A stretch of 64,000 bases of DNA from Escherichia coli O127:H6 str. E2348/69 (GTDB lineage Bacteria > Pseudomonadota > Gammaproteobacteria > Enterobacterales > Enterobacteriaceae), in the NCBI RefSeq assembly GCF_000026545.1, contig NC_011601.1; one strand, 5' to 3'. The number at the start of each line of letters is the position of its first letter. Position 1 is the first letter of the stretch. The notes beneath the pieces are model-generated. The model was not told the origin of the DNA. It did no database searches and was given only the letters and a program-made list of their open reading frames with translations. Both the position numbers and the translations under genes were made by a program. Positions 1,282 to 12,424 of this stretch are shown piece by piece.

Positions 1282-1300
1282 TTGTACCCAAGACTGTACC
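1282..1300 (+). repeat. attL core: 19-bp direct repeat TTGTACCCAAGACTGTACC (identical copy at 12406-12424)
   Basis: Exact 19/19 match at both ends of the integrase-bearing element. Confidence 0.75.
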
Positions 1301-1360
1301 TTTAATAATTTATCCAATTCATTTTGGGTACAAAATGATAGTCAATATTCAGGTGAAACT

Positions 1361-2620
1361 ATGGCAAAGCTGACAGATATCCAAATCAAGTCATGGATTA
1401 AGGCAGGAGAACGCTTCGAGGGGCGCTCTGACGGCAACGGGCTATACCTTCGCTATCGAGTGGGGGATAAAGTGCCTGTATGGCGTTTTCGATATCAGTT
1501 CGCTGGGAAATCACGGGTAATGCTTATTGGATCTTATAGCGAAATATCCCTTTCCAAAGCACGGGAAATAGCCAAGGAATTATCCGCACGTGTAGCCCTG
1601 GGCTTCGATGTCGCCGGGGAAAAGAAAGCGCGAAAAGCGGCTGCTATAGAAAAGATGGAGCGGGAGAAAAACGCGCTTCGCGTGTCAGAGCTAGCAACCG
1701 AGTATTTCGAACGGCAGATTTTGGGACGCTGGAAACATCCCGATCTTCTGCGCCGGAGAATCGATAAGGATATCAACCCACATATTGGCAACATGAAGAT
1801 AGAGGACGTAAAACCCCGTCATATTGATGCGATGCTACAGAGCGTTGTTGATCGTGGCGCTCCAACCGTAGCTAATGACGTTCTGCGCTGGACTAAACGC
1901 ATATTCGATTATGCTATCAAGCGTCATGCACTGGAATTAAACCCAGCTGGAGCATTTGATCTGTCAGACGCTGGCGGGCAGGAAAGTAGCCGTATGCGCT
2001 GGCTGACCCGTGAAGAACTTATACGTTTTTTCCAAGCTATGCGCACTGCAAAAGGATTCAGCCGCGAGAACGAGCTGACCATGAAGCTAATCCTCTGCCT
2101 GTGTTGTCGCAAAATGGAGCTGTGCGGTGCTCAGTGGGATGAATTCGACCTTGATGAAGCAGTGTGGCATCTACCAGCAGAACGCGTTAAAAACGGCGAC
2201 GCTATTGATATACCACTACCTCCACCTGCGGTTGGTTGGTTGAGAGAGCTTCGCACTATCGCGGGCAGTGGGAGTAAATGGGTTCTCCCCGCGCGGAAGA
2301 TGCAACACCGCATGATTCCCCACATTCAGGAAAGCACACTCCCAGTGGCGCTGGCAAAAGTACGCCGCGAAATGCCAGAAGTACCAAACTTCACAATTCA
2401 CGATTTCAGGCGTACCGCCCGCACCCATTTAGCGGCGTTGGGTGTCGATCCCGTAGTCGCAGAACGTTGCCTGAATCACCGCATTAAAGGCGTTGAGGGT
2501 ATCTACAACCGCCACCAGTACTTTGAAGAACGACGGGCAGCCCTGGAACTGTGGGCGGGGCTTCTGGTTTCGCTTGAACGAGGGGAAAACTACAATGTTA
2601 TTCCTTTATCTAAAATATAA
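1361..2620 (+). CDS. int: Tyrosine recombinase, P4-type integrase (419 aa)
   Basis: N-terminus MAKLTDIQIKSWIKAGERFEGRSDGNGLYLRYRVGDKVPVWRFRYQFAGK typical of P4-family arm-binding domain; C-terminal HDFRRT...HRIKGVEGIYNRHQY catalytic motif; start set at ATG 1361 with RBS aggtgaa. Confidence 0.9.
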   Translation: MAKLTDIQIKSWIKAGERFEGRSDGNGLYLRYRVGDKVPVWRFRYQFAGKSRVMLIGSYSEISLSKAREIAKELSARVALGFDVAGEKKARKAAAIEKMEREKNALRVSELATEYFERQILGRWKHPDLLRRRIDKDINPHIGNMKIEDVKPRHIDAMLQSVVDRGAPTVANDVLRWTKRIFDYAIKRHALELNPAGAFDLSDAGGQESSRMRWLTREELIRFFQAMRTAKGFSRENELTMKLILCLCCRKMELCGAQWDEFDLDEAVWHLPAERVKNGDAIDIPLPPPAVGWLRELRTIAGSGSKWVLPARKMQHRMIPHIQESTLPVALAKVRREMPEVPNFTIHDFRRTARTHLAALGVDPVVAERCLNHRIKGVEGIYNRHQYFEERRAALELWAGLLVSLERGENYNVIPLSKI

Positions 2621-2635
2621 AAGTTTTGTTTGAAG

Positions 2636-2740
2636 GTATTCACCCTATTCACCTTTTTAATTAACTTCATGATTTTAAATAATAAAAAAGGGTGAATACT
2701 TACAGTAAAACTAATCACCTTAGTATTCACCTGTTCACCT
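2636..2740. repeat. Cluster of five GGTGAAYA-type motifs (TATTCACC x3, GGTGAATA, TGTTCACC) downstream of int
   Basis: Read directly from sequence; a similar cluster lies at 12150-12265 at the other end of the element. Confidence 0.45.
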
Positions 2741-3123
2741 TCTAAAGCTGCTGTGGCTGCTCCCCTTGCCCGAAAACACGCCAGCCACCAGCGTTAAAAA
2801 AAACTACAAAAATCATCATCGTACAGATCTGTACGATGACGCCAGCACTCACCCTACAAAACAACCTAACTTATTGATTTCAAAAGTAGAGAAAATCTGC
2901 TTTATGCCACTAGCTCGCACCCGTCCCCAAAAAGAAAAAGCCCGCGCTGGAGACGCACGGGCTTTTGGGTACCGATAACCATGTTTGGAATCAACTCATT
3001 GAGTTCTGACCTCAATTTGCATGTTATCACAAGAAAAACACATTGTAATAATTGCAACAACGAATATCATCATTGCATATAATGAAACATAAATATCCGA
3101 TAGAACATACTGAGGTCTGACCG

Positions 3124-3675
3124 ATGCAAGATATTACAAACATCGCAGTGACTGGCGAAGATGGCGTGGTGACGTATGCCGACGGCAGTAAAGAGGAGTT
3201 CCAGTGCAGCGGAACCGTTGCGACCATCATTGCAAGTCTTGCAACGACACTCGAGAAAGAACGCAAAATGCGCATCGCCACCGGCGACCGCCTGCGCCGC
3301 ATGTACACCCGCGACAGTGATATGATTTCCCGCGGTTTGAATGGCACGTCTGCTACTTCCACGGCACCGACAGCAATGAATGCTGAGTTCATGCGTCTGG
3401 TACGTGCCGTAGCGCCGAAATACGATTCAGCACTGCCCGACGCCGACCCGCGCATCGTTGCGCTCGATGTGCTGCGCTACGCCCCTGCTGAGGCGTTCAG
3501 CGCCGTACACCCTACCCCAATGTCAGAAATCCAGCTGGATCAGGCTATCGATATACTCGAGCAGGTTGGCGACTACATGAAAGCAAACAATATCGCTCCG
3601 AAAATAATTTCTACAGGAGACGCAATCCGCAGCATCAATGCTGACAACGCCACCTTCTGGGGCAAAAAACACTAA
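3124..3675 (+). CDS. Hypothetical protein, 183 aa (first gene of cargo operon)
   Basis: ORF of 183 aa, same strand and closely spaced with three downstream ORFs; no motif recognised. Confidence 0.6.
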   Translation: MQDITNIAVTGEDGVVTYADGSKEEFQCSGTVATIIASLATTLEKERKMRIATGDRLRRMYTRDSDMISRGLNGTSATSTAPTAMNAEFMRLVRAVAPKYDSALPDADPRIVALDVLRYAPAEAFSAVHPTPMSEIQLDQAIDILEQVGDYMKANNIAPKIISTGDAIRSINADNATFWGKKH

Positions 3676-3688
3676 AGAGATATGAAGC

Positions 3689-3877
3689 ATGTCTATCTAT
3701 GACCCGAAATTAGCCGCAGGCAACCCACAGCGCGCCCACCGCCCAATGCTGACCCGTCAGGATCTTGAAACGGCAAAGGCACGCAATAACTTCGATCGCC
3801 AGAGTCGCAACCTGCAGCAACTCAACGAATCAAATGCACGGTTCTGGAGTGAACAGAATGAGAAAGCCAAACGTTAA
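3689..3877 (+). CDS. Hypothetical small protein, 62 aa
   Basis: Small ORF 14 bp after previous stop; basic/charged composition; no recognised domain. Confidence 0.4.
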   Translation: MSIYDPKLAAGNPQRAHRPMLTRQDLETAKARNNFDRQSRNLQQLNESNARFWSEQNEKAKR

Positions 3878-4034
3878 GCCGGTCCTGCTGTCCGCCGAGC
3901 AGATGCAGGCCATACGCAACATTCAGGAACGTGAACGCCAGCGCTCCAATCTCGGCGTCGCTCCCACCGTTCACCAGATTGCCCGCGGCCTCATGGCTAA
4001 GGCTCTGGCCTCACTGGCAAGCGAGGGCGCGTAA
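3858..4034 (+). CDS. Hypothetical small protein, 58 aa (start taken at ATG 3858)
   Basis: RBS ggag 9 nt upstream of ATG 3858; its stop overlaps the start of the next gene (TAATG). Confidence 0.4.
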   Translation: MRKPNVKPVLLSAEQMQAIRNIQERERQRSNLGVAPTVHQIARGLMAKALASLASEGA

Positions 4035-4765
4035 TGGGCGCCATTCACCAGATATATGAGCAGGAAATGTTCTATAACTGGATAGGCGATGGTAAACGAT
4101 GTGTAGCATTCCACGAAGCGGGCCATGCAGTAGCCGCATGGCTTATTCGCTTAGATATGCAGGTTATCGCCATTATGGATGAATCCGGCTACGTTGCTGG
4201 CGAACATGTACATGAAGCCCAGTGTTTGGGCGTTGTTAAACACGGCATAATCCACAGCCACGATCTCAGGCGTTTGCGGGAGAGTAAATCTGGTGTAGTT
4301 GGGCACGATGGCAAAGTTATCCCTTTCATACGCTACTACGCGGAAGGTATAAAGCGCGATGCAACAAAGGCCGCTTTTGTAGCCCTCGCTGGACCAGTAA
4401 GCGAAGCCATTTACGAAAATAACGAAATTTTCAATATAAAGTATTCACTCCCTCACCGCTATGACATGGCTAACGTAAATGACATGCTCGATTTAATATG
4501 TGCCACGGATAAGCGAATTAACAGGAAGTTAATGCTTTCTAAACTTGTTGAAAAGACCAAATTCCTCATGACTCAATACTGGCCGGAAGTAGGAAAAATA
4601 GCGCATTTGCTTGAGCGGGATAACATTGTTAATGGCCGCGATGTTAGCTCGCTAATCGGCCTCAACGTCATTGACCGGGCAACGCCATTTTTGGTATCTG
4701 ACTTGAGCAGTACATTTGCTCATCTCCCGTACTCGTCCCTGCCTCCGAATGAATTAGCAACTTGA
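4034..4765 (+). CDS. Standalone FtsH-like (M41-type) zinc metallopeptidase domain protein, 243 aa, no AAA+ module
   Basis: VAFHEAGHAVAAWL closely matches the FtsH zinc-binding HEAGH motif; later ALAGPVSEAIYEN resembles the FtsH third-ligand region; no Walker A/B present. Confidence 0.55.
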   Translation: MGAIHQIYEQEMFYNWIGDGKRCVAFHEAGHAVAAWLIRLDMQVIAIMDESGYVAGEHVHEAQCLGVVKHGIIHSHDLRRLRESKSGVVGHDGKVIPFIRYYAEGIKRDATKAAFVALAGPVSEAIYENNEIFNIKYSLPHRYDMANVNDMLDLICATDKRINRKLMLSKLVEKTKFLMTQYWPEVGKIAHLLERDNIVNGRDVSSLIGLNVIDRATPFLVSDLSSTFAHLPYSSLPPNELAT

Positions 4766-4812
4766 AGACAGTAAAGTAGCCATGCATTTAACACGCATGG
4801 CTATGTGAACAT

Positions 4813-6036
4813 TTAAGAATTAGAGCGCTTAGGCGATCGCGTAAATTGCACTAAAGCCCCTTTATGATCGTTAGCCTGCACATCACGATGCTCAACCAAC
4901 ATAGATTTTAATTTTGCCAGATGCACAACAGCAGCCTTCTTGCCAGTCAGGTACCCCTCGGGCAAACCAGCAATCATTTCCACATCAATAGCAGATAAAC
5001 CTGCGAATGCAGCAAGCCGTTCAACTGAAATGATTCCAGACGATGCCAGCAATTCAATAGTACGTTTCAACAAACGTGGTTTTTCAGGCTCACGATAATC
5101 ATCTCCCGGCTCTGATTTCGCTCCCCAACGTGCTGAACGACGCTTATAAAGATTTTGTTTCTCTTCTTCCGTAATAATATGCAGCACATGTAAACGCATG
5201 ATACTTGCCGCAACGGAAATACCATAGCGTTGTTTAATTAAAAGCAAGCTATCTAATGTTACCGGGGTCCTAATTTCTTCGGCAAATGTCTCAGCAGGAA
5301 GCAGCAGTGCTCCCGCAAATTTATGAGCCTGACTTTCCTTCAGCTTATAACGTTCGGCTTCGAGTTCGTTGCCAACATAGCGGTGAAGGATCAGATGACC
5401 AATTTCGTGAGCAAGGTCAAATCTGCTACGAAAAGCATTACCTTTATCTGAAGAGAGGAGAACAAAAGGAACACCTAAAGTCTCACTCCAGGCAGAAAGC
5501 CCTTCAATCTGCGCAACGCCTGTTTCTTCTCTAATAACGATAATACCATTACTCTCTGCGGCTAAAGCAAGATCCGGTATTTCCTTTGTACCAAGATTCC
5601 AAAGAGCACGGCACTCATTAGCAGCGTCTTCAATATCTGCATCACTAATTTCATCAATGTTTGTAAAGCTACGACGCGGTAGTTTTAGCTCCGGCAGATC
5701 TACAAACTCAGTCAGCTTAGTAACTAACTCATTAGCCCAATGGATTCGAGTTTCTAACATTGCTCGTGCAGCTACATGAGCTGATGCATTGCTTCTGAAC
5801 AGAGGCTTTGACATCCCCTTCAACAGAGGGCGCGTAAACCATTCAGGTGTAACATTTACGACAGTGGCCAGACGTTCTAAAGCCTCAGACTCTGGAGCCT
5901 GTTGACCGGAACGCCATTTGCTAATGGTTGCTGGTGATACACCCACCATAGTAGCTAATTGAGTTTGTGATAGCCGCCGGGCGGCTAGTACCTGTGCTAA
6001 CCTGCCCGGTTGAAATTCGGCGACGCCTCGGCTCAT
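4813..6036 (-). CDS. XRE-family HTH fused to ImmA/IrrE (M78-type) metallopeptidase, with ~150-aa C-terminal extension (407 aa)
   Basis: N-terminal LSQTQLATMVGVSPATISKWRSG helix-turn-helix; FDLAHEIGHLILHRY HExxH motif typical of ImmA/IrrE peptidases. Confidence 0.75.
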   Translation of the reverse strand: MSRGVAEFQPGRLAQVLAARRLSQTQLATMVGVSPATISKWRSGQQAPESEALERLATVVNVTPEWFTRPLLKGMSKPLFRSNASAHVAARAMLETRIHWANELVTKLTEFVDLPELKLPRRSFTNIDEISDADIEDAANECRALWNLGTKEIPDLALAAESNGIIVIREETGVAQIEGLSAWSETLGVPFVLLSSDKGNAFRSRFDLAHEIGHLILHRYVGNELEAERYKLKESQAHKFAGALLLPAETFAEEIRTPVTLDSLLLIKQRYGISVAASIMRLHVLHIITEEEKQNLYKRRSARWGAKSEPGDDYREPEKPRLLKRTIELLASSGIISVERLAAFAGLSAIDVEMIAGLPEGYLTGKKAAVVHLAKLKSMLVEHRDVQANDHKGALVQFTRSPKRSNS

Positions 6037-6680
6037 ACATTATCTTCCTCGGTTCCATCTTTTCTGATAATGCCCCTTTTGAGCCCAGGGAATGCATTAT
6101 CTTCTTGGGACGGAACTACATCATATCGGGTTAAAAAAAGTTCAAGTGGCTCATGAAAAACCCAGCGCTTCCCATCAGAACTTGGTACAACAAGCTCTAT
6201 AGACATCGGAGCTTCAGGCTGAATCTGCAACGAACCGGAAAAACGGCATACTACGAACAGTGTAGCTTTTGGCACATCAGAACCATCGGAGAATAAATCC
6301 GGTTGCACCATTTTTTCCACAAACACGTTCTCAGAAATGAGTTCTTGCTTACGTTTGCTACGGAATAATCTCTTCCACTGGTTATCATTGTAGCTTTCAC
6401 GAACAATCGTGAATATACCACTATGGCCTTCTACAATACGGTTACCACGCAGCTTTCCAGGATTACAACCGTTGGCCTCAAACACCTCATAAATAGTTTC
6501 ATTCAGGTTTAAATGACGATCATAACCAAGCGCGGTCGATCTGTGATCTAGCTTCTTCTTTTGAGCATAATCGTAAGAACGCTTTGATGCCGCGTAAATC
6601 GCGTCAGAAAGGGCCATGAAGAGTTGTTTTGAAACATTCTGAACGATGAGATCTGCCACTTTGGATTTTTTCACGACCAT
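6033..6680 (-). CDS. Hypothetical protein, 215 aa, translationally coupled upstream partner of the HTH-ImmA gene
   Basis: ORF of 215 aa; its stop overlaps the downstream start (ATGA at 6033-6036); no recognised motif. Confidence 0.6.
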   Translation of the reverse strand: MVVKKSKVADLIVQNVSKQLFMALSDAIYAASKRSYDYAQKKKLDHRSTALGYDRHLNLNETIYEVFEANGCNPGKLRGNRIVEGHSGIFTIVRESYNDNQWKRLFRSKRKQELISENVFVEKMVQPDLFSDGSDVPKATLFVVCRFSGSLQIQPEAPMSIELVVPSSDGKRWVFHEPLELFLTRYDVVPSQEDNAFPGLKRGIIRKDGTEEDNV

Positions 6681-6683
6681 TTC

Positions 6684-6702
6684 CTATCACTGTCACTGAT
6701 AG
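6684..6702. promoter_or_regulatory. Inverted repeat CTATCA-N7-TGATAG overlapping the RBS/start region of the 215-aa gene (candidate operator)
   Basis: Read directly from sequence immediately adjacent to the start codon at 6680. Confidence 0.25.
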
Positions 6703-7209
6703 CCGTGATTTTATATCAGTATTTTTTCGTGTGTCCATAACGCAATCAATTATTTTTTCCTTTGTCAGCAAGAATTATATAAAAAGCACTATCATGACAG
6801 GATTTGGGCCACTAACCTTTCACAGACTCTTGAAGTCCTAGAAAAAAGCAATGGCACAAGGTGTCCTTGCCGGGAGAAAAATCATCTGGCTACCAGCAAC
6901 CTTATAGATTCCAGATCAACGTAATATCAAAGTAAAACGTCCATTTCCGGTACCATATTTGGTCATTACGACGGGGGAAACTTATACCCACTGCTGCCCC
7001 ATCGTCAGCGCCGACAGGGACCTATGCCGCAAGGTATAAGGCAAAATTGGCATTTTCGCTATTCCCCCTGCCCGTATTTTTTGGCTTACTGGAATTTCTC
7101 TATCTAACACAATGAACTTGAGGCTATTCCGACAGGGAGAAAAGCGATCTACGCCTGACCGCCTGCCTCAGCAATCATCCAGGCAAGTACGTGTGTAAGG
7201 CTAACGCGA

Positions 7210-7890
7210 ATGAGTGATTTTTATTCCCCTCTACCAAGCTATGATCTTGTCCGGGCAGCGGAGATGCTGACTGATAAGGGGGCAAATTGTACCGGTAACG
7301 ATTTATTGGAACTATGGAACCAAGGCGTTATCGAGTTGTGTTTTTCTCTGCCGGACTACATTGCTTGTGAAGATGTTAATTTTCCCGGGCATGGTCACAG
7401 CATTTTGTTATCCGTGGATCCGATTAGCTTCAACCTTTTCTGGCTAAATGTTGATTACCCACCGAACTTAAATGCTAACTTTTCTGTGAAAGAATATGGC
7501 TCAGATAGTGAATTCCATGAGCAGTCCCTATGGATACCAACAGAACCGCACTACAACACTCACCATGATAACGGGGAAGGGCTTTGCGAAGCGTTAAGGA
7601 ATACTTATGGCCGGGAAAATTTACGAATACCAGGTGTCGAATTGCAAAAGGTTTGGCGCTTTTTGATCGGTCAGCCTTATGAAAAAAAGCCAACGCCTGA
7701 GCGTATCACCGCTAAGCAATGCCGCTTTATCGTCGCATTACTCAGATCGTATAACCTGACTGACGATGATTTTAAGGGGAGCATTAGGGACCTGAGAATT
7801 AAGATATCTAACCGGATCCCTTCAATCGGTGATCCTGAAATCGATGATAATACCCTTACTGACTGGCTGAAGAAGGGAGGGGTTCGGTAG
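7210..7890 (+). CDS. Hypothetical protein, 226 aa
   Basis: Isolated ORF upstream of alpA, preceded by ~530-bp AT-rich intergenic region; no recognised motif. Confidence 0.55.
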   Translation: MSDFYSPLPSYDLVRAAEMLTDKGANCTGNDLLELWNQGVIELCFSLPDYIACEDVNFPGHGHSILLSVDPISFNLFWLNVDYPPNLNANFSVKEYGSDSEFHEQSLWIPTEPHYNTHHDNGEGLCEALRNTYGRENLRIPGVELQKVWRFLIGQPYEKKPTPERITAKQCRFIVALLRSYNLTDDDFKGSIRDLRIKISNRIPSIGDPEIDDNTLTDWLKKGGVR

Positions 7891-7992
7891 CTGAGTTTTC
7901 ATAACTCCGATGAGTTTTCAATAACTCCCCCACCCGTAACCACCTACCCCGTAGCCTTGCGATTACCTTCTCACTCAATAGCAGGTAATCGC

Positions 7993-8205
7993 ATGAAATC
8001 GCAAACTTTCACCTTTCCTACCAATGGCAACGCACGAGCCAAACAAGTGGCGCACTATCTTGGAGTGCATATCAGCACCGTATGGCGCTATGCAAAACGT
8101 CCTGATTTTCCAAAACCCCACCAGTTAACCGACGGCGTGACCGTCTTTGACGCCGCAGCTATTCGCCAATGGAACAAGCAAAAAACCGGGGGTGAGAATG
8201 CTTAA
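7993..8205 (+). CDS. alpA: AlpA-family phage transcriptional regulator / excisionase-like DNA-binding protein (70 aa)
   Basis: KQVAHYLGVHISTVWRYAKRPDFPKPHQLTDGVTVFDAAAIRQW is the AlpA-type HTH pattern; start set at ATG 7993. Confidence 0.8.
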   Translation: MKSQTFTFPTNGNARAKQVAHYLGVHISTVWRYAKRPDFPKPHQLTDGVTVFDAAAIRQWNKQKTGGENA

Positions 8206-8259
8206 CGCGACCGTGAGCACACCCTGCACGACAGCCGTTCGATCTCCATTGTTGGCGGG

Positions 8260-8454
8260 TCAGGCTTTCGGCTCAATACCCAGCCGCTGGAGTTCTTTGC
8301 GCCCCAAGGTTTTCATCCAATTAGCTAAACTCATACCTGCATCTCGTGCGGCGGCCTCGAATTGCTCTTTCAATTCTGGGGCGATCCTCACTTGGAAAGC
8401 TGGTGCCTTTCCCCTGCCTTTGGGCTGTTTATCACGCTGTATTACTGTTGACAT
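8260..8454 (-). CDS. Small ribbon-helix-helix-like protein (64 aa), opposite strand to the replication operon
   Basis: FQVRIAPELKEQFEAAARDAGMSLANWMKTLGRK resembles RHH (Arc/CopG-type) strand-helix-helix; start chosen at internal Met. Confidence 0.4.
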   Translation of the reverse strand: MSTVIQRDKQPKGRGKAPAFQVRIAPELKEQFEAAARDAGMSLANWMKTLGRKELQRLGIEPKA

Positions 8455-8588
8455 GTATGTACCTATTAAACTAAGATTCAAATCAATAGGTACGCACCTT
8501 AACATGTTAAGGTCAGAAAAGACAACGCCCCGTAGTGCTCGCAACACATACGGGGCGTCTAACCAACAACGTTACGGAGACTAACGCT

Positions 8589-8789
8589 ATGGCTAAGCCG
8601 CAGTGTACCCAAACTCACCCCAAATATCAGTATCGTTTTATGGCGCTCGATCGCGCTGACCGCCAGGCAAAACCCTGCAAAATCATTGTTGAGGCCACCA
8701 GCGAGCATGAAGCACGTAAGGTGTTGGCACCTCACTACATCCTGTCACTGTCCGCCGTTTTGCCAGTTCAGGAGGTGAGCCATGTTTAA
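8589..8789 (+). CDS. Hypothetical small protein (66 aa), satellite replication-module operon
   Basis: RBS ggaga upstream of ATG 8589; overlaps next ORF. Confidence 0.5.
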   Translation: MAKPQCTQTHPKYQYRFMALDRADRQAKPCKIIVEATSEHEARKVLAPHYILSLSAVLPVQEVSHV

Positions 8790-8976
8790 TGTCATTGTCA
8801 CGGTCACCTATCACTTTTCGGGAACGATCCGTCGTTTTGCTATTCCGGAACGTTTCAATAATCGTGAGCTCGCAGAGAAAGCGGCGCAGCAGTTAACCCA
8901 TACCAGCTATCTGGATGATGGAGTGAGCAGAATTGTGACCCACGCGGCGGAAGTAGTGGAGGTGCGCCATGTATGA
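8782..8976 (+). CDS. Hypothetical small protein (64 aa)
   Basis: Strong RBS caggaggtg; overlapping start/stop with neighbours. Confidence 0.55.
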   Translation: MFNVIVTVTYHFSGTIRRFAIPERFNNRELAEKAAQQLTHTSYLDDGVSRIVTHAAEVVEVRHV

Positions 8977-9157
8977 CGCCTACCTGAACCCAAAGGACGC
9001 ACTCCGTCCGATCGCCGTTGCACTCGAGGCTGCGCAGTTTATCGCGCTTGACCCGGAGAATACCGATTTAGCCCATGAGCTGATCGCCTGGGCACTTGAA
9101 ACAGCCGCGCGTGCCTCAGCTGCGCAACGTAACACCCCGGAGGTGGACAATGCTTAA
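8969..9157 (+). CDS. Hypothetical small protein (62 aa)
   Basis: RBS ggaggtg upstream; translationally coupled. Confidence 0.5.
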   Translation: MYDAYLNPKDALRPIAVALEAAQFIALDPENTDLAHELIAWALETAARASAAQRNTPEVDNA

Positions 9158-9458
9158 TCTCAATACATGGAATCTTTTCACGCTGCCGCTGAACGGTGGC
9201 GCAGCTGAGACAGCGCCGGACGATCTGCGTCTGCTGGCCGCTGTGGGGGACGAGGCTCGCAACAACTACCTGCGCGGTGTAAGCGCCATCGGCAATCTGA
9301 TCTTCTGGGCATGTGATAACCCCAACTACACCGACCATCAAGCTGACCTGCCAGCGCTGGGCGCATTCCTGAAACATACCGCTGATATGGCGCGCGCTGC
9401 CGAATTCATGGCAGGACATCTGGACTCACTGGCTGACGGCAAAGAGGGAGGCAAATAA
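9150..9458 (+). CDS. Hypothetical protein (102 aa)
   Basis: RBS ggaggtg before ATG 9150; stop overlaps next start. Confidence 0.55.
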   Translation: MLNLNTWNLFTLPLNGGAAETAPDDLRLLAAVGDEARNNYLRGVSAIGNLIFWACDNPNYTDHQADLPALGAFLKHTADMARAAEFMAGHLDSLADGKEGGK

Positions 9459-9679
9459 TGCCACGCAAACATCGCTCATCAAGCAACCTGATCAAATTAA
9501 TGGAACGCCAGAAAGGTATAGGGCGCGACGATATCCAGATCGCAGATAATCGCCCTACATTCATGCCGTACGAGCCGAACGGAACCTACGCTACAAACCG
9601 CCATACCCGCCGTATGCTACGCAAGCTCCACGGCATCCAGGCAAAAAGAATGTGTGATCTGAAAGGAGGTCAGAAATGA
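9458..9679 (+). CDS. Hypothetical small basic protein (73 aa)
   Basis: RBS gagggagg; stop overlaps primase start (ATGA). Confidence 0.5.
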   Translation: MPRKHRSSSNLIKLMERQKGIGRDDIQIADNRPTFMPYEPNGTYATNRHTRRMLRKLHGIQAKRMCDLKGGQK

Positions 9680-12090
9680 GTGGATTCGATCACCTGATGG
9701 AGCAGGGGCAGAAACGCACCCCTGCTCGTTTTACTGCAAATAGCTTTTCTGACCTGTGCAACGCTATTCTATCGCATCGTGTGCAAATTTCCATCACACA
9801 GGAAATGACGGATGAAGAACGGCGCAAAGAAAAGCAGAAACTGTACTGGTTCTCGGCAACTACCCAGCAGGACGGGCAGCGACGTAAACCCGAAAACATG
9901 GCACCGTGTGCTTTCGGTATGCTGGACATTGACGGCAGCACTCCCGGTGCAATCACAGCACTTGTACAGGTGTTCCGGCGATACTCAATGCTGGTGTACC
10001 AGACGGCCAGCTATACGACGGATGAACCTCGTCTGCGTATTGTGTGCGAGCTTTCCCGAGCGGTTGAATCTGACTACCGCCGAGCGACAGGCGAATCCAT
10101 AGAAACTTTGTTGATGCAGGAGGCTGGATTCTCATTCGCCAGCCTGGCGGATAAGAAAGCACGCTGGGAGAACGGCAGCGATTATGTTGTCTTTGACCGC
10201 AATGTATACGGCGCTCAAAGCTATTGCTACTGTCCACACACTGGAGCGAAAGCCCAGAATTACGCGGGCGCGGTAATCGACGTAGGGGCGTTACCGGAAC
10301 CCGCCCAGCCACCAGCGAAGGCGGCCAAAAGCAAGGCAAAGAAACAGCGCCAGCGTGACGCCGCGGCGGTAATAGATGCTGATTTTGACGATCTGAGCGC
10401 CGGACCGGATAACTTCCTTATCGCCGACCTGCGCAGCGCACTCTGGTTTCCCTCCATGCTGCAAAAGGCATGGGACAATGGGGCGTGGATTGAGCAGGGC
10501 TACCGCCTTGCATCTCTCAAAGGCACCGATTTTGAGGACGACGCGCGGCAACTGTGGGTCGAGTGGTCATTGACCGCAGCGGATGGCTGGCCTGATGAAG
10601 AACTTGATGAAGTCGCGGCACAACGCTGGAATGGTCTCGCCCCTGACAAAACCAGCTATAAAGCTATTTTTACTGATGCTCAGGCGCAGGGGTGGAATAA
10701 TCCGGGCAAATGGCGAGCAAAGGCCGCGTACATTGAGAAAATGGCCCCCAGCACACGCGGTGAACTGCTGGCGCAATATTACGGCAACGTATGCCTGAAA
10801 GCTGATGGCAACATGGTTTATCACTATACCGGGCAGGTGTGGGAGCACATCGCCGATGCCGAGTTGCGCCGCCAGCTTTCGCAGATTTTCAAAGATAACG
10901 GGGTCCCCTTTACACCGTACGAGGTTAAAAGCGCGATTGAGGCTATGGGAATGCTTCTGCCTTTAATGGGAGAAACTCCTCGTAACCTGATTGGCTTTGC
11001 CAACGGCGTTTATGATCTCGAGGCGCAGCGATTCCGCCCCCACTGCCCAGACGATTGGCTGACCAGCCATAACGGCGTTGAATACACGCAGCCGGTTAAA
11101 GGCGAAACCCTGAAAAACAATGCCCCAAACTTCTGGCGCTGGCTGCATCATTCCGCAGGGGGCGACTTCGACAAAATGGAGAGAATCAAAGCCGCTCTGT
11201 ATATGGTGCTGGCAAACCGCTACGACTGGCAACTGTTCATCGAGGTTACCGGTGCTGGTGGCAGTGGTAAAAGCGTGTTCACGGGTATTGCACGTATGCT
11301 GACGGGCGAACTACACGCCACCAGCGGCACAATGGAGGACATGGACACCGCGCGCGAACGCGCATCTTTTGTCGGCAAAAGCCTGATCACCCTACCCGAC
11401 CAAGCAACATATACGGGTTCCGGGCCGGGTATCAAGGCTATAACGGGCGGCGACGTGGTAAGGATCGACCCAAAGCACGAAAAGCCATTCCATACGGTTA
11501 TTCGCGCCGTTGTCATCGCAACAAACAACGAACCTATGCGTTTCACCGAACGACAAGGCGGGATATCGCGGCGCCGGGTTATTTTCCCGTTTAACCATGA
11601 AGTGCCGGAGGCGGAACGTGATCCCCATCTGCTCGATAAAATTAAAGCCGAACTGCCGGTAATCGTCCGTGGTCTGCTGATTGACTTCGAACAGCCAGGC
11701 AAAGCCAAATCGCTACTTATCGCGCAGCGTGATTCAGCGGAAGCGCTGCAGGTGAAGAACGATAACGACCCGATGTATGGCTTTTGCTCTTACCTGCTAG
11801 GTTTGCCGAATCCCGAGGGCATGTACATGGGCGATGGGCGCATGGCGCGAGAGCCACGCATCTACCTCTATCATGCTTATCTGGCCTATCTGGAAGCCTA
11901 CGGTTATCAGAGAACCCCCACCCTACCGAAGTTCAGCGGAGATTTACGGGACACGCTCAAAGCCTTTGGTATTACTCTGGACAGTAAAAAGAGTAAAAAG
12001 GGCAAAAGATATAACGTCAATTTGTCTGACAGGGCACAAGAATGGCTGGGAGAAGACGAACTCTCAGCTGTGCCCGACACATTGCAGTAA
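9676..12090 (+). CDS. P4 alpha-like bifunctional DNA primase/helicase (804 aa)
   Basis: Walker A GAGGSGKS in the C-terminal half; size and architecture typical of P4-alpha-type replication proteins; RBS aaggagg. Confidence 0.85.
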   Translation: MSGFDHLMEQGQKRTPARFTANSFSDLCNAILSHRVQISITQEMTDEERRKEKQKLYWFSATTQQDGQRRKPENMAPCAFGMLDIDGSTPGAITALVQVFRRYSMLVYQTASYTTDEPRLRIVCELSRAVESDYRRATGESIETLLMQEAGFSFASLADKKARWENGSDYVVFDRNVYGAQSYCYCPHTGAKAQNYAGAVIDVGALPEPAQPPAKAAKSKAKKQRQRDAAAVIDADFDDLSAGPDNFLIADLRSALWFPSMLQKAWDNGAWIEQGYRLASLKGTDFEDDARQLWVEWSLTAADGWPDEELDEVAAQRWNGLAPDKTSYKAIFTDAQAQGWNNPGKWRAKAAYIEKMAPSTRGELLAQYYGNVCLKADGNMVYHYTGQVWEHIADAELRRQLSQIFKDNGVPFTPYEVKSAIEAMGMLLPLMGETPRNLIGFANGVYDLEAQRFRPHCPDDWLTSHNGVEYTQPVKGETLKNNAPNFWRWLHHSAGGDFDKMERIKAALYMVLANRYDWQLFIEVTGAGGSGKSVFTGIARMLTGELHATSGTMEDMDTARERASFVGKSLITLPDQATYTGSGPGIKAITGGDVVRIDPKHEKPFHTVIRAVVIATNNEPMRFTERQGGISRRRVIFPFNHEVPEAERDPHLLDKIKAELPVIVRGLLIDFEQPGKAKSLLIAQRDSAEALQVKNDNDPMYGFCSYLLGLPNPEGMYMGDGRMAREPRIYLYHAYLAYLEAYGYQRTPTLPKFSGDLRDTLKAFGITLDSKKSKKGKRYNVNLSDRAQEWLGEDELSAVPDTLQ

Positions 12091-12109
12091 CTTGTAAAAA
12101 ATCACCAAG

Positions 12110-12132
12110 AACCCCGTAAATCGGGGTTTTTG
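12110..12132 (+). terminator. Rho-independent terminator after the primase gene
   Basis: Hairpin aaccccg-taaa-tcggggtt followed by ttttt. Confidence 0.65.
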
Positions 12133-12149
12133 TCTATTTATTAGTCTGA

Positions 12150-12265
12150 AAGGGTGAACAGGTGCGCATACCTTAACAAAGCTGTTCACTCTAATAATTT
12201 TCTTTAATATCAGTACACTACCCGCAATAAGTGAACAGATGGACGGGGTGAACACTTCACACCTA
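12150..12265. repeat. Cluster of GGTGAACA-type motifs (four to five copies, both orientations) near the attR end
   Basis: Read from sequence; mirrors the motif cluster at 2636-2740. Confidence 0.4.
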
Positions 12266-12405
12266 TAGCGCGAAATATTTTAATATTTGCAGTTGAATTG
12301 CAATCCTTGAAAACAGAAACGCGTAGCAAAACGTAGAGTGCTGAAAAAATTTTGTTGGGGAGCAGTTCAAACTGCATGAGCAATTTTCAAGCACTCCTCT
12401 TTGTC

Positions 12406-12424
12406 TTGTACCCAAGACTGTACC
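12406..12424 (+). repeat. attR core: second copy of 19-bp direct repeat TTGTACCCAAGACTGTACC
   Basis: Exact match to 1282-1300. Confidence 0.75.

Follow-up and report, generated by a model that had tools for sequence, protein, structure and literature searches.

The immI region of phage P22 comprises the ribbon-helix-helix (RHH) repressors Arc and Mnt together with the antisense RNA sar, with the Arc operator lying inside the promoter Pant, and on plasmid pMV158 replication is controlled by the RHH protein CopG and the countertranscript RNA II. Here we describe a small bacterial control module that appears, by analogy, to unite features of both of these systems (Mnt/Arc plus sar; CopG plus RNA II) with those of symER (LexA plus SymR). 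It lies in a stretch of 64,000 nucleotides from Escherichia coli O127:H6 strain E2348/69 (contig NC_011601.1), referred to below as the window, and is centered on a 64-codon gene on the minus strand, situated in the 383-bp gap between the alpA stop codon (8205) and the start of an Icd-like gene (8589) that opens the replication operon of an integrative island. From comparison with related loci, we consider it likely that a dimeric Arc/Mnt-type RHH repressor acting at two operators and a SymR-like antisense RNA together form a dual lock on this operon. The parts concerned are as follows.

8260..8454, minus strand: gene for a probable Arc-like RHH repressor of 64 amino acids (open reading frame and translation, 51 homologs, purifying selection, Arc profile match, AlphaFold2 (AF2) and Foldseek)
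8453..8464, no strand assigned: predicted operator O2, reading AGGTACATACAT on the repressor-sense strand; position conserved in 40 upstream regions
8488..8499, no strand assigned: predicted operator O1, AGGTACGCACCT; palindromic outer 4+4, 35 bp from O2
8448..8477, plus strand: predicted promoter of the icd-like/primase operon; -35 TTGACA 8448-8453, 18-nt spacer, -10 TAAGAT 8472-8477
8483..8510, minus strand: candidate repressor promoter (a weak call); TTAACA 8510-8505, 16 nt, TATTGA 8488-8483, with O1 in the spacer
8516..8594, minus strand: SymR-like cis-antisense RNA of ~79 nt (covariance model, minimum free energy (MFE) fold, compensatory changes)
8602..8607, minus strand: -10 box TACACT (small RNA promoter), within icd-like codons 5-7 and 7 nt upstream of the RNA 5' end
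8589..8789, plus strand: Icd-like gene of 66 amino acids, first gene of the operon (NF033153 E 5.3e-18; phrog_1743 9e-19)
8782..12090, plus strand: rest of the operon, four small overlapping open reading frames and a P4-type primase/D5 helicase at 9676-12090 (TIGR01613, D5_N, DUF5906, Pox_D5; RefSeq)

The open reading frame (ORF) of the putative repressor starts at an ATG (8454-8452) and extends, stop codon included, to 8260; its product, MSTVIQRDKQPKGRGKAPAFQVRIAPELKEQFEAAARDAGMSLANWMKTLGRKELQRLGIEPKA, is listed in RefSeq as the hypothetical protein WP_000108746.1 (E. coli O127:H6 E2348/69). A search of 5.8 billion proteins returned 51 homologs of 60-64 residues, nearly all of them 63-64 residues long, from Escherichia, Serratia, Citrobacter, Klebsiella, Proteus, Providencia, Morganella, Dickeya, Pectobacterium, Yersinia, Xenorhabdus and Aeromonas, to which a genome scan added 43 further loci and a search of a phage collection one Pasteurella element. 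The length of 63-64 residues is conserved in Enterobacterales, Aeromonas and Pasteurella. Between the window gene and its Aeromonas copy the proportion of nonsynonymous differences (pN) is 0.08 and that of synonymous differences (pS) 0.82, with synonymous sites saturated, and the median ratio of nonsynonymous to synonymous rates (dN/dS) in the larger length classes of the repressor family is 0.03-0.10. Given the 51 relatives, a pN far below pS and the low dN/dS, the ORF is, by these comparative measures, a true protein-coding gene under strong purifying selection. A 95-residue extended ORF beginning at GTG 8547 was considered and dropped: all homologs begin at the methionine of MST, and the extension would also cross the operators and the terminator.

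As for the fold, a family profile of 33 members matched P22 Arc in the PDB with an E-value of 3.2e-4, residues 12-59 aligning with Arc residues 2-49 (full length), and this alignment takes in the N-terminal arm and the beta-strand (KG-SK-PQFNLRWPRE in Arc, KG-GKAPAFQVRIAPE here); a PHROG family described as 'Arc-like repressor' was matched as well (E 1.2e-5). The AlphaFold model of the monomer contains two helices, 26-38 and 43-57, at a predicted local distance difference test score (pLDDT) of 77. Because the RHH strand forms only in the dimer, a tethered dimer was folded in AF2, in which two copies were joined by a 15-residue Gly-Ser linker and given a matched alignment. In this model both copies show a strand at 19-23 followed by the helices at 26-38 and 43-57, with pLDDT values of 82-90 within these blocks. 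The best Foldseek match of the monomer model is Arc (1myl; probability 1.00, TMt 0.87), nearly all of the top 50 matches are RHH proteins, and the neighbors are mostly RHH repressors and the DNA-binding domains of antitoxins. Furthermore, the turn G40-M41-S42 fits the G-x-S/T/N signature that opens helix 2 of RHH proteins, and Ser42, Arg23, Trp46 and Arg52 are invariant across the 33 sequences. Residues 19, 21 and 23 are the counterparts of Gln9, Asn11 and Arg13, which contact bases in the Arc-operator structure (1PAR). Searches with the single sequence hit RHH families exclusively, all of them below curated cut-offs (the C-terminal part of HicB, NikA, RHH_10, TraJ, MobA, YlcI/YnfO and RelB). 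According to these models and matches, the product is most likely an Arc-type RHH DNA-binding protein, and its family has no curated model of its own.

The initial annotation of this DNA had placed a 64-residue, RHH-like product on the minus strand between alpA and the replication operon, and its coordinates and translation are exactly those found here. Its fold call has been borne out by the Arc profile (E 3.2e-4), the PHROG match (1.2e-5), the Foldseek list headed by Arc and the strand-helix-helix succession that appears twice in the dimer model; a profile match (to Arc) and a conserved reading frame (51 homologs), in whose absence the call was to be abandoned, were both found. It was, however, mistaken in describing the gene as alone on the minus strand, since a small RNA gene (8594-8516) lies on the same strand just upstream of it, and both this antisense RNA gene and the operators had been overlooked.

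When the 47 related loci were oriented with the repressor gene on the top strand, 40 distinct upstream regions could be compared, and their common layout consists of two 12-bp sites, AGGT-N4-ACCT, about 35 bp apart. O1, with palindromic outer 4+4 positions (typically AGGT-N4-ACCT), starts at -45 from the start codon in most cases (21 loci) and at -41 to -44 in a few, and O2 repeats this site as AGGT-N4-AC, continuing into the start codon (ACATGTCAAC). The 11-mer TAGGTACRYAC occurs twice in the 64 kb of the window, at O1 and O2 only, with 0.04 occurrences expected. O2 overlaps the Shine-Dalgarno (SD)-like AGGT and the start codon of the repressor gene and falls within the spacer of the divergent promoter, and O1 lies at approximately +4 to +15 of the predicted icd-operon transcript. 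A perfect 18-bp palindrome at 8496-8513 was also considered as an operator and rejected, its left arm being unconserved in other genera.

Inside single loci, the central tetranucleotides (N4) of O1 and O2 are either identical or reverse complements of one another in 24 of the 26 loci that could be scored. Between loci the central N4 falls into six classes (ACGT, GACC, ATAG, GTAC, AGTT and AATT), each of which goes with a particular beta-strand.

Beta-strand QFRMR: N4 GACC (6/6)
Beta-strand TFQIR: N4 ACGT
Beta-strand MFNVR: N4 ATAG (2/2)
Beta-strand PFHMR: N4 GTAC (2/2)
Beta-strand MKHIR: N4 AGTT
Beta-strand x-Y-Q-M-R: TGGT-AATT-ACCA (E. coli O157:H7 island and Pasteurella multocida element)

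Arg23 and the outer GGT/ACC of the operators are constant across loci, and the operator centre changes with residues 19 and 21. We propose that the repressor probably binds the paired operators through its beta-ribbon. A comparison within E. coli fits into the same picture: the island of AUSMDU00014361 is ~100% identical to that of E2348/69 on both flanks of a replaced stretch of ~250 bp, which reaches from near the repressor C-terminus to the terminator hairpin and carries a 35%-identical repressor allele with its own operators. Judged from the alignment, this swap is a natural exchange of exactly the repressor-plus-operator cassette, and alpA is 99-100% identical between the two strains although the operator core changes with the RHH allele. 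Where the swap ends on the right (L002 5583-5743 against window 8494-8654), the stem of the terminator hairpin is kept and its loop matches that of E2348/69 in exact reverse complement. More generally, pieces of the repressor region recombine as modules across 5,426 complete E. coli genomes.

A promoter scan of positions 7850-8850 produced a single sigma-70-like site, the plus-strand TTGACA (8448-8453) and TAAGAT (8472-8477) separated by 18 nt, whose -35 hexamer is the reverse complement of repressor codons 1-3. TTGACA is kept in 39 of the 40 distinct sequences, and a TAnnnT-like hexamer stands 18 nt away from it (T1 22/40, A2 31/40, T6 27/40). The Ser2 codon of the repressor gene is TCA in 41 of 41 sequences despite saturated synonymous divergence, which therefore indicates a constraint at the DNA level. 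The candidate promoter of the repressor gene itself was read directly off the sequence and is partly conserved in the alignment; an alternative source of repressor transcript is read-through past the terminator of the small RNA.

This small RNA is encoded by an unannotated gene of ~79 nt located between the repressor gene and the icd-like gene (8594-8516, minus strand). In every locus (n=47), a strong hairpin and a T-run are found on the repressor-sense strand between the repressor gene and its divergent partner, and a -10 element TAnnnT precedes the conserved 5' end AGCCAU by exactly 7 nt. All 45 distinct sequences (45/45) have T1, A2 and T6, and the box is kept although it lies inside the coding regions of unrelated partner genes. 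A two-hairpin MFE fold is predicted for 38 of 38 relatives, and K-12 SymR folds alike. The loop of the first hairpin (SL1) carries the anti-SD sequence CUCC and the second (SL2, 8558-8525) is the terminator hairpin followed by the U-run, with the window RNA reaching an MFE of -37.2 kcal/mol (z = -6.2). The RNA shows complementarity to both the SD (GGAG, 8578-8581) and the start codon (8589-8591) of the icd-like gene, and its 5' end lies opposite target codon 2.

A covariance model (R1), for which 38 sequences were used, identifies one and only one copy in each locus, including eight loci outside model building; in the window its single match, 8594-8516, scores 65.6 bits (E 3e-12), and in the Pasteurella element it scores 36.5 bits (E 3e-7). 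In the model-fitted alignment, which is biased towards the model's own structure, 82% of cells are paired, versus 37-49% in slid controls, and compensatory changes occur in 17 of 24 pairs, a count reached by 0 of 500 shuffles. RNAalifold run on the plain MAFFT alignment gave a consensus energy near zero because two hairpin length classes were misaligned, and per-sequence folding and the covariance-model alignment were used instead. Rfam scans at the locus found no C4, isrK or SymR match in the window and only a chance-level match to R1162 antisense RNA (18.7 bits); the Rfam SymR model (RF01809, gathering threshold 61 bits) gave no window match even at E <= 10 on 300 bp. It did match two relatives (L009 and L039) over its full length with 30.2 and 28.1 bits, below 61, and the best match of R1 in the K-12 locus falls exactly on symR and begins at the same base, with only 14.6 bits. 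In terms of promoter, fold and these cross-matches, the small RNA looks like, and we take it to be, a distant relative of SymR.

In the model that we favor, a repressor dimer at O2 would block the divergent icd-like/primase promoter from within its spacer, and the repressor at O1 would sit on the transcript start of the operon and on the spacer of the candidate repressor promoter. Occupancy of both sites would turn the replication operon off and at the same time place the repressor under its own control; we propose both effects because O2 lies in the promoter spacer and over the SD and ATG of the repressor gene, and O1 in the spacer of its candidate promoter. As a second layer, the SymR-like antisense RNA, made constitutively, would pair with the icd-like SD and start codon and block translation of the first gene. 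Unlocking could be achieved by AlpA-driven read-through that enters the repressor gene convergently from alpA and crosses it, or by an anti-repressor. That such read-through would bypass the repressed promoter and disturb repressor expression is a guess, albeit a reasonable one because alpA is transcribed convergently with the repressor gene, the two stop codons lying 55 bp apart, and because a terminator scan predicted none between them. What the analysis itself shows is the gene with its fold class, the operators and how they covary with the reading residues, the conservation of the promoter, and the promoter, structure and terminator of the RNA; binding, repression and unlocking are what we infer.

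Several points weigh against this model. The curated cut-offs for RHH families are not reached, with 19.5 versus 21 for Pfam HicB, 14.2 versus 27 for NikA-like, 13.2 versus 27 for RHH_10 and 15.9 versus 30 for the NCBIfam model YlcI_YnfO_N. O1 and O2 of the window differ at two central positions (GCGT versus ACAT), and the 35 bp from one to the other do not add up to full turns of the helix. The conservation of TTGACA coincides with that of the Met-Ser-Thr N-terminus, and the promoter scan missed the candidate repressor promoter, the placement of which is not confident. Binding and repression, moreover, are deduced from comparison. Finally, the covariation across loci is partly phylogenetic because operator and protein are inherited together, and the concordance of O1 with O2 inside single loci is the stronger argument.

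Closest to the dual lock stands the idea that the module is a copy-number controller of the excised element, which would limit the primase after induction only, in the manner of CopG and RNA II of pMV158, and would play no role in quiescence or immunity. Its parts are indeed those of pMV158 (an RHH repressor of the rep-operon promoter and an antisense RNA over a ribosome-binding site) and the regulated operon ends in a primase/replicase; it overlaps heavily with our model, sharing its molecular mechanism and differing in timing and role. However, the module is also found at SymE-like toxins and at an uncharacterized 176-residue family in loci without replication genes, and the antisense RNA targets the first small gene and not the primase, so that we regard a pure copy-number function as unlikely.

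The nature of the divergent partners bears on a second idea, namely that the protein belongs to a toxin-antitoxin system, be it as an orphan type II antitoxin or as a direct binder that neutralizes a divergent toxic product (Icd-like here, SymE-like elsewhere). The window shares an Icd-like partner with Proteus, Dickeya, E. coli O157, Yersinia, Tatumella and Pasteurella, and in Xenorhabdus and Photorhabdus the partner is an Icd-like stub of 26-33 residues. In 17 loci, which come from Citrobacter, Enterobacter, Lelliottia and others and several of which adjoin selC, it is a toxin of the SymE family (PF08845), and in 13 it is a protein of an uncharacterized family of 169-195 residues that has no Pfam or NCBIfam match. 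That family is present at L009, L018, L021, L028-L031, L033, L036, L037 and L044. The window itself contains tRNA-Sec (selC) at 38278-38368 on the plus strand, and several related repressor/SymE-type loci elsewhere likewise adjoin selC. The first ~12 codons of all partners look alike because they overlap the 5' end of the RNA and its promoter.

What would speak for an antitoxin is that NCBI names the homologs HicB-family antitoxin, that weak HicB, RelB and VapB-type RHH matches exist, and that a SymE-family toxin is the divergent partner at 17 related loci, the partner in the window being predicted to inhibit cell division; we also count in its favor that some SymE genes accompany RHH transcription factors (Kawano et al. 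2007, PMC1891008). Nevertheless, neither HicA nor any other fixed, conserved co-directional toxin adjoins the repressor gene in the 47 loci, and the window has no hicA. With only ~7 residues past helix 2, the protein lacks a toxin-binding tail and corresponds to the RHH part of HicB alone: within its 64 residues, only 20-47 match PF05534 (positions 20-47 of 51, below cut-off), and the two-part architecture of HicB, an N-terminal domain plus a C-terminal DNA-binding domain, is not seen. That the partner families bear no sequence relationship to one another speaks against a specific fit between two proteins, and the operators are conserved whichever partner is present. We therefore consider a toxin-antitoxin role quite improbable. 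PADLOC returned no match for the RHH or the Icd-like protein.

The suggestion of the initial annotation that the protein might be an orphan antitoxin thus finds no support, as there is no conserved toxin in 47 loci and the likeness to HicB is confined to its RHH part; a partner toxin was looked for in related loci and none is conserved, the downstream genes being alpA, Bro/Ant-type genes or genes of a changing defence type. Its other suggestion, a regulator of the flanking operon, gains support by comparison from the paired operators on the divergent promoter, whose centres covary with the DNA-reading residues. To judge from the loci compared, the conserved unit is a control cassette (promoter, operators, antisense RNA and repressor) and not a toxin-antitoxin protein pair, and this cassette would restrain toxic products at the level of their expression. 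In the non-satellite loci L030, L033, L038, L039 and L042, the gene just after the repressor gene is of a changing defence type. The defence-type genes found there include an Mrr-like nuclease, a RelA/SpoT-like protein, an AAA_21/AAA_15 ATPase, SIR2, and SIR2 plus STAND, which suggests a defence hotspot adjoining the control cassette.

It is very improbable, lastly, that we are dealing with a functionally unrelated small protein (an excision cofactor or a partition-type RHH protein) and with palindromes that are promoter or att-like elements bound by, for example, AlpA, for although there are weak matches to the partition/relaxosome RHH proteins NikA, TraJ and MobA and AlpA-family proteins do bind DNA near the promoters of such islands (PMC6092414), the operator core follows the RHH allele while alpA stays nearly unchanged (99-100% identical, E2348/69 versus AUSMDU00014361), the operator motif is found nowhere else in the island, and E. 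coli O157 and Pasteurella pair the same operator core with the same beta-strand type.

The dual lock that we propose is housed in an island with the following further features.

1282..12424, no strand assigned: integrative island of 11.1 kb between yicC and dinD (19-bp direct repeats, integrase, flanking genes)
1361-2620: tyrosine integrase
4813-6680, minus strand: Rosmer anti-phage pair (cargo), rmrT 6033-6680 (PADLOC RmrT 8e-16) and rmrA 4813-6036 (RmrA 3.5e-125)
7117-7184, plus strand: int-alpA RNA motif (Rfam RF02996, 39.4 bits versus gathering 35.8)
7993..8205, plus strand: alpA (PF05930 E 5.2e-7), convergent with the repressor gene

The island is bounded by a perfect 19-bp direct repeat, TTGTACCCAAGACTGTACC, at 1282-1300 and 12406-12424, and these repeats are probably the attL and attR of the integrative element. 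The rmrA product combines the domains HTH_3 and Peptidase_M78, and the int-alpA RNA motif precedes a 226-residue ORF of unknown function (7210-7890) and not alpA directly. Co-oriented int, alpA and primase genes, att-like repeats and a size of ~10-15 kb agree with the layout of Gram-negative phage-inducible chromosomal islands (PICIs) and P4-like satellites, for which the order int-alpA-primase has been described (PMC6092414; PMC10111431); terS, capsid, sid, psu and delta were not recognised among the island ORFs scanned. The arrangement int-alpA-(Bro/Ant)-RHH, divergent from small ORFs and a primase gene, recurs in Aeromonas, Proteus, Dickeya, E. coli O157 and Pasteurella. The equivalent position in a capsid-forming PICI (cf-PICI) of the EcCIEDL933 type in O157:H7 PV15-279 (L008, region 4328-4944) is occupied by an unannotated repressor homolog of 57 residues (4771-4944, minus strand) with its own ATGGTAATTACCAT sites as operators, ATGGTAATT-type repeats. 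On the plus strand, over this gene, RefSeq annotates a spurious 'Icd-like pseudogene' of 594 nt. This false pseudogene and the 'HicB antitoxin' names are systematic annotation errors. The Pasteurella element Pmp8 (L054, OR544139.1, locus 4871-5183; 15 kb, deposited as a phage) shows the same layout of alpA, repressor, antisense RNA and primase, and its operator core, TGGTAATTACCA, is identical to that of the E. coli O157 allele.

In Gram-negative PICIs, AlpA acts as an activator and whether a global repressor exists has been stated as unclear (PMC6092414), and a preprint on cf-PICIs mentions a variable gene of unknown function downstream of alpA (10.1101/2025.02.11.637232). Our literature searches found no account of the repressor protein, of RHH regulators belonging to Gram-negative PICIs or of SymR-like RNAs located at icd, and nothing relevant on repressors of Gram-negative PICIs or on what YlcI/YnfO do. 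We tentatively raise the possibility that the repressor and the SymR-like RNA represent the missing maintenance or 'immunity' switch of Gram-negative PICIs and cf-PICIs, with immunity types exchanged as cassettes, a flip brought about by AlpA, and reuse of the module at SymE toxins and other cargo. If so, allelic repressor/operator pairs would define immunity types that are swapped as cassettes, AlpA expression triggered by the helper would turn the switch by sending convergent transcripts across the repressor gene, and the portable cassette would also have been put to use in gating SymE toxins and further cargo near defence hotspots. The locus offers a candidate Gram-negative PICI repressor at the head of the replication operon, with mapped predicted operators, a readable specificity code and a paired antisense RNA; it extends the SymR family to new targets, and its proposed transferable two-layer expression lock may serve engineering.

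Set beside the known regulators of satellites, such as Stl/Rpr of Gram-positive PICIs and the CI RNA of P4 or c4 RNA of P1, the module shares with them a regulator divergent from the satellite excision/replication operon. It differs in that Stl proteins are large helix-turn-helix repressors relieved by helper-phage proteins, and in that Rfam scans of the window found no C4/isrK-type RNA. With Gram-negative PICIs it shares the position of the repressor gene between alpA and the replication genes, where Mageeney et al. described a variable Bro/immunity zone with C4/isrK-type RNAs (PMC10111431). As in pMV158, an RHH repressor of a replication-operon promoter is combined with a countertranscript that would block translation initiation; however, copG is the first gene of the operon that its product represses, whereas the repressor gene is divergent here, the type of replicon is another one, and the sequences are unrelated beyond the fold.

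The antisense half of the module most resembles symE/symR of K-12, with an RNA of ~77-79 nt, two hairpins, an exposed anti-SD and a start opposite target codon 2, and with the -10 box of the RNA 7 nt upstream, inside the target ORF (PMC1891008 for K-12). The target is truly of the SymE family (PF08845) in 17 related loci, and the operator of the repressor stands where K-12 has its LexA box. On the other hand, the target in the window is Icd-like and not symE, the Rfam SymR threshold is not reached, and a dedicated RHH repressor takes the place of LexA, and therefore SOS control is not to be expected.

The repressor half, in turn, resembles immI of P22. There are two repressors in P22 and one here, the TAGA boxes of Arc contrast with AGGT-N4-ACCT, the target is an antirepressor in P22 and an Icd-like protein plus primase here, and the RNA is SymR-like and unrelated to sar, in a host that is a satellite-like island. 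Nonetheless, Arc is the closest solved relative by sequence, N-terminal arm included; an operator is predicted between the -35 and -10 of the repressed promoter, as that of Arc at Pant; the repressor gene is divergent from the operon it would control, as is mnt; and, like sar, the small antisense RNA lies across one of that operon's ribosome-binding sites. Taken together, the protein itself is an ordinary kind of repressor, and it is the module, with its specificity code and its position within satellite biology, that varies known themes.

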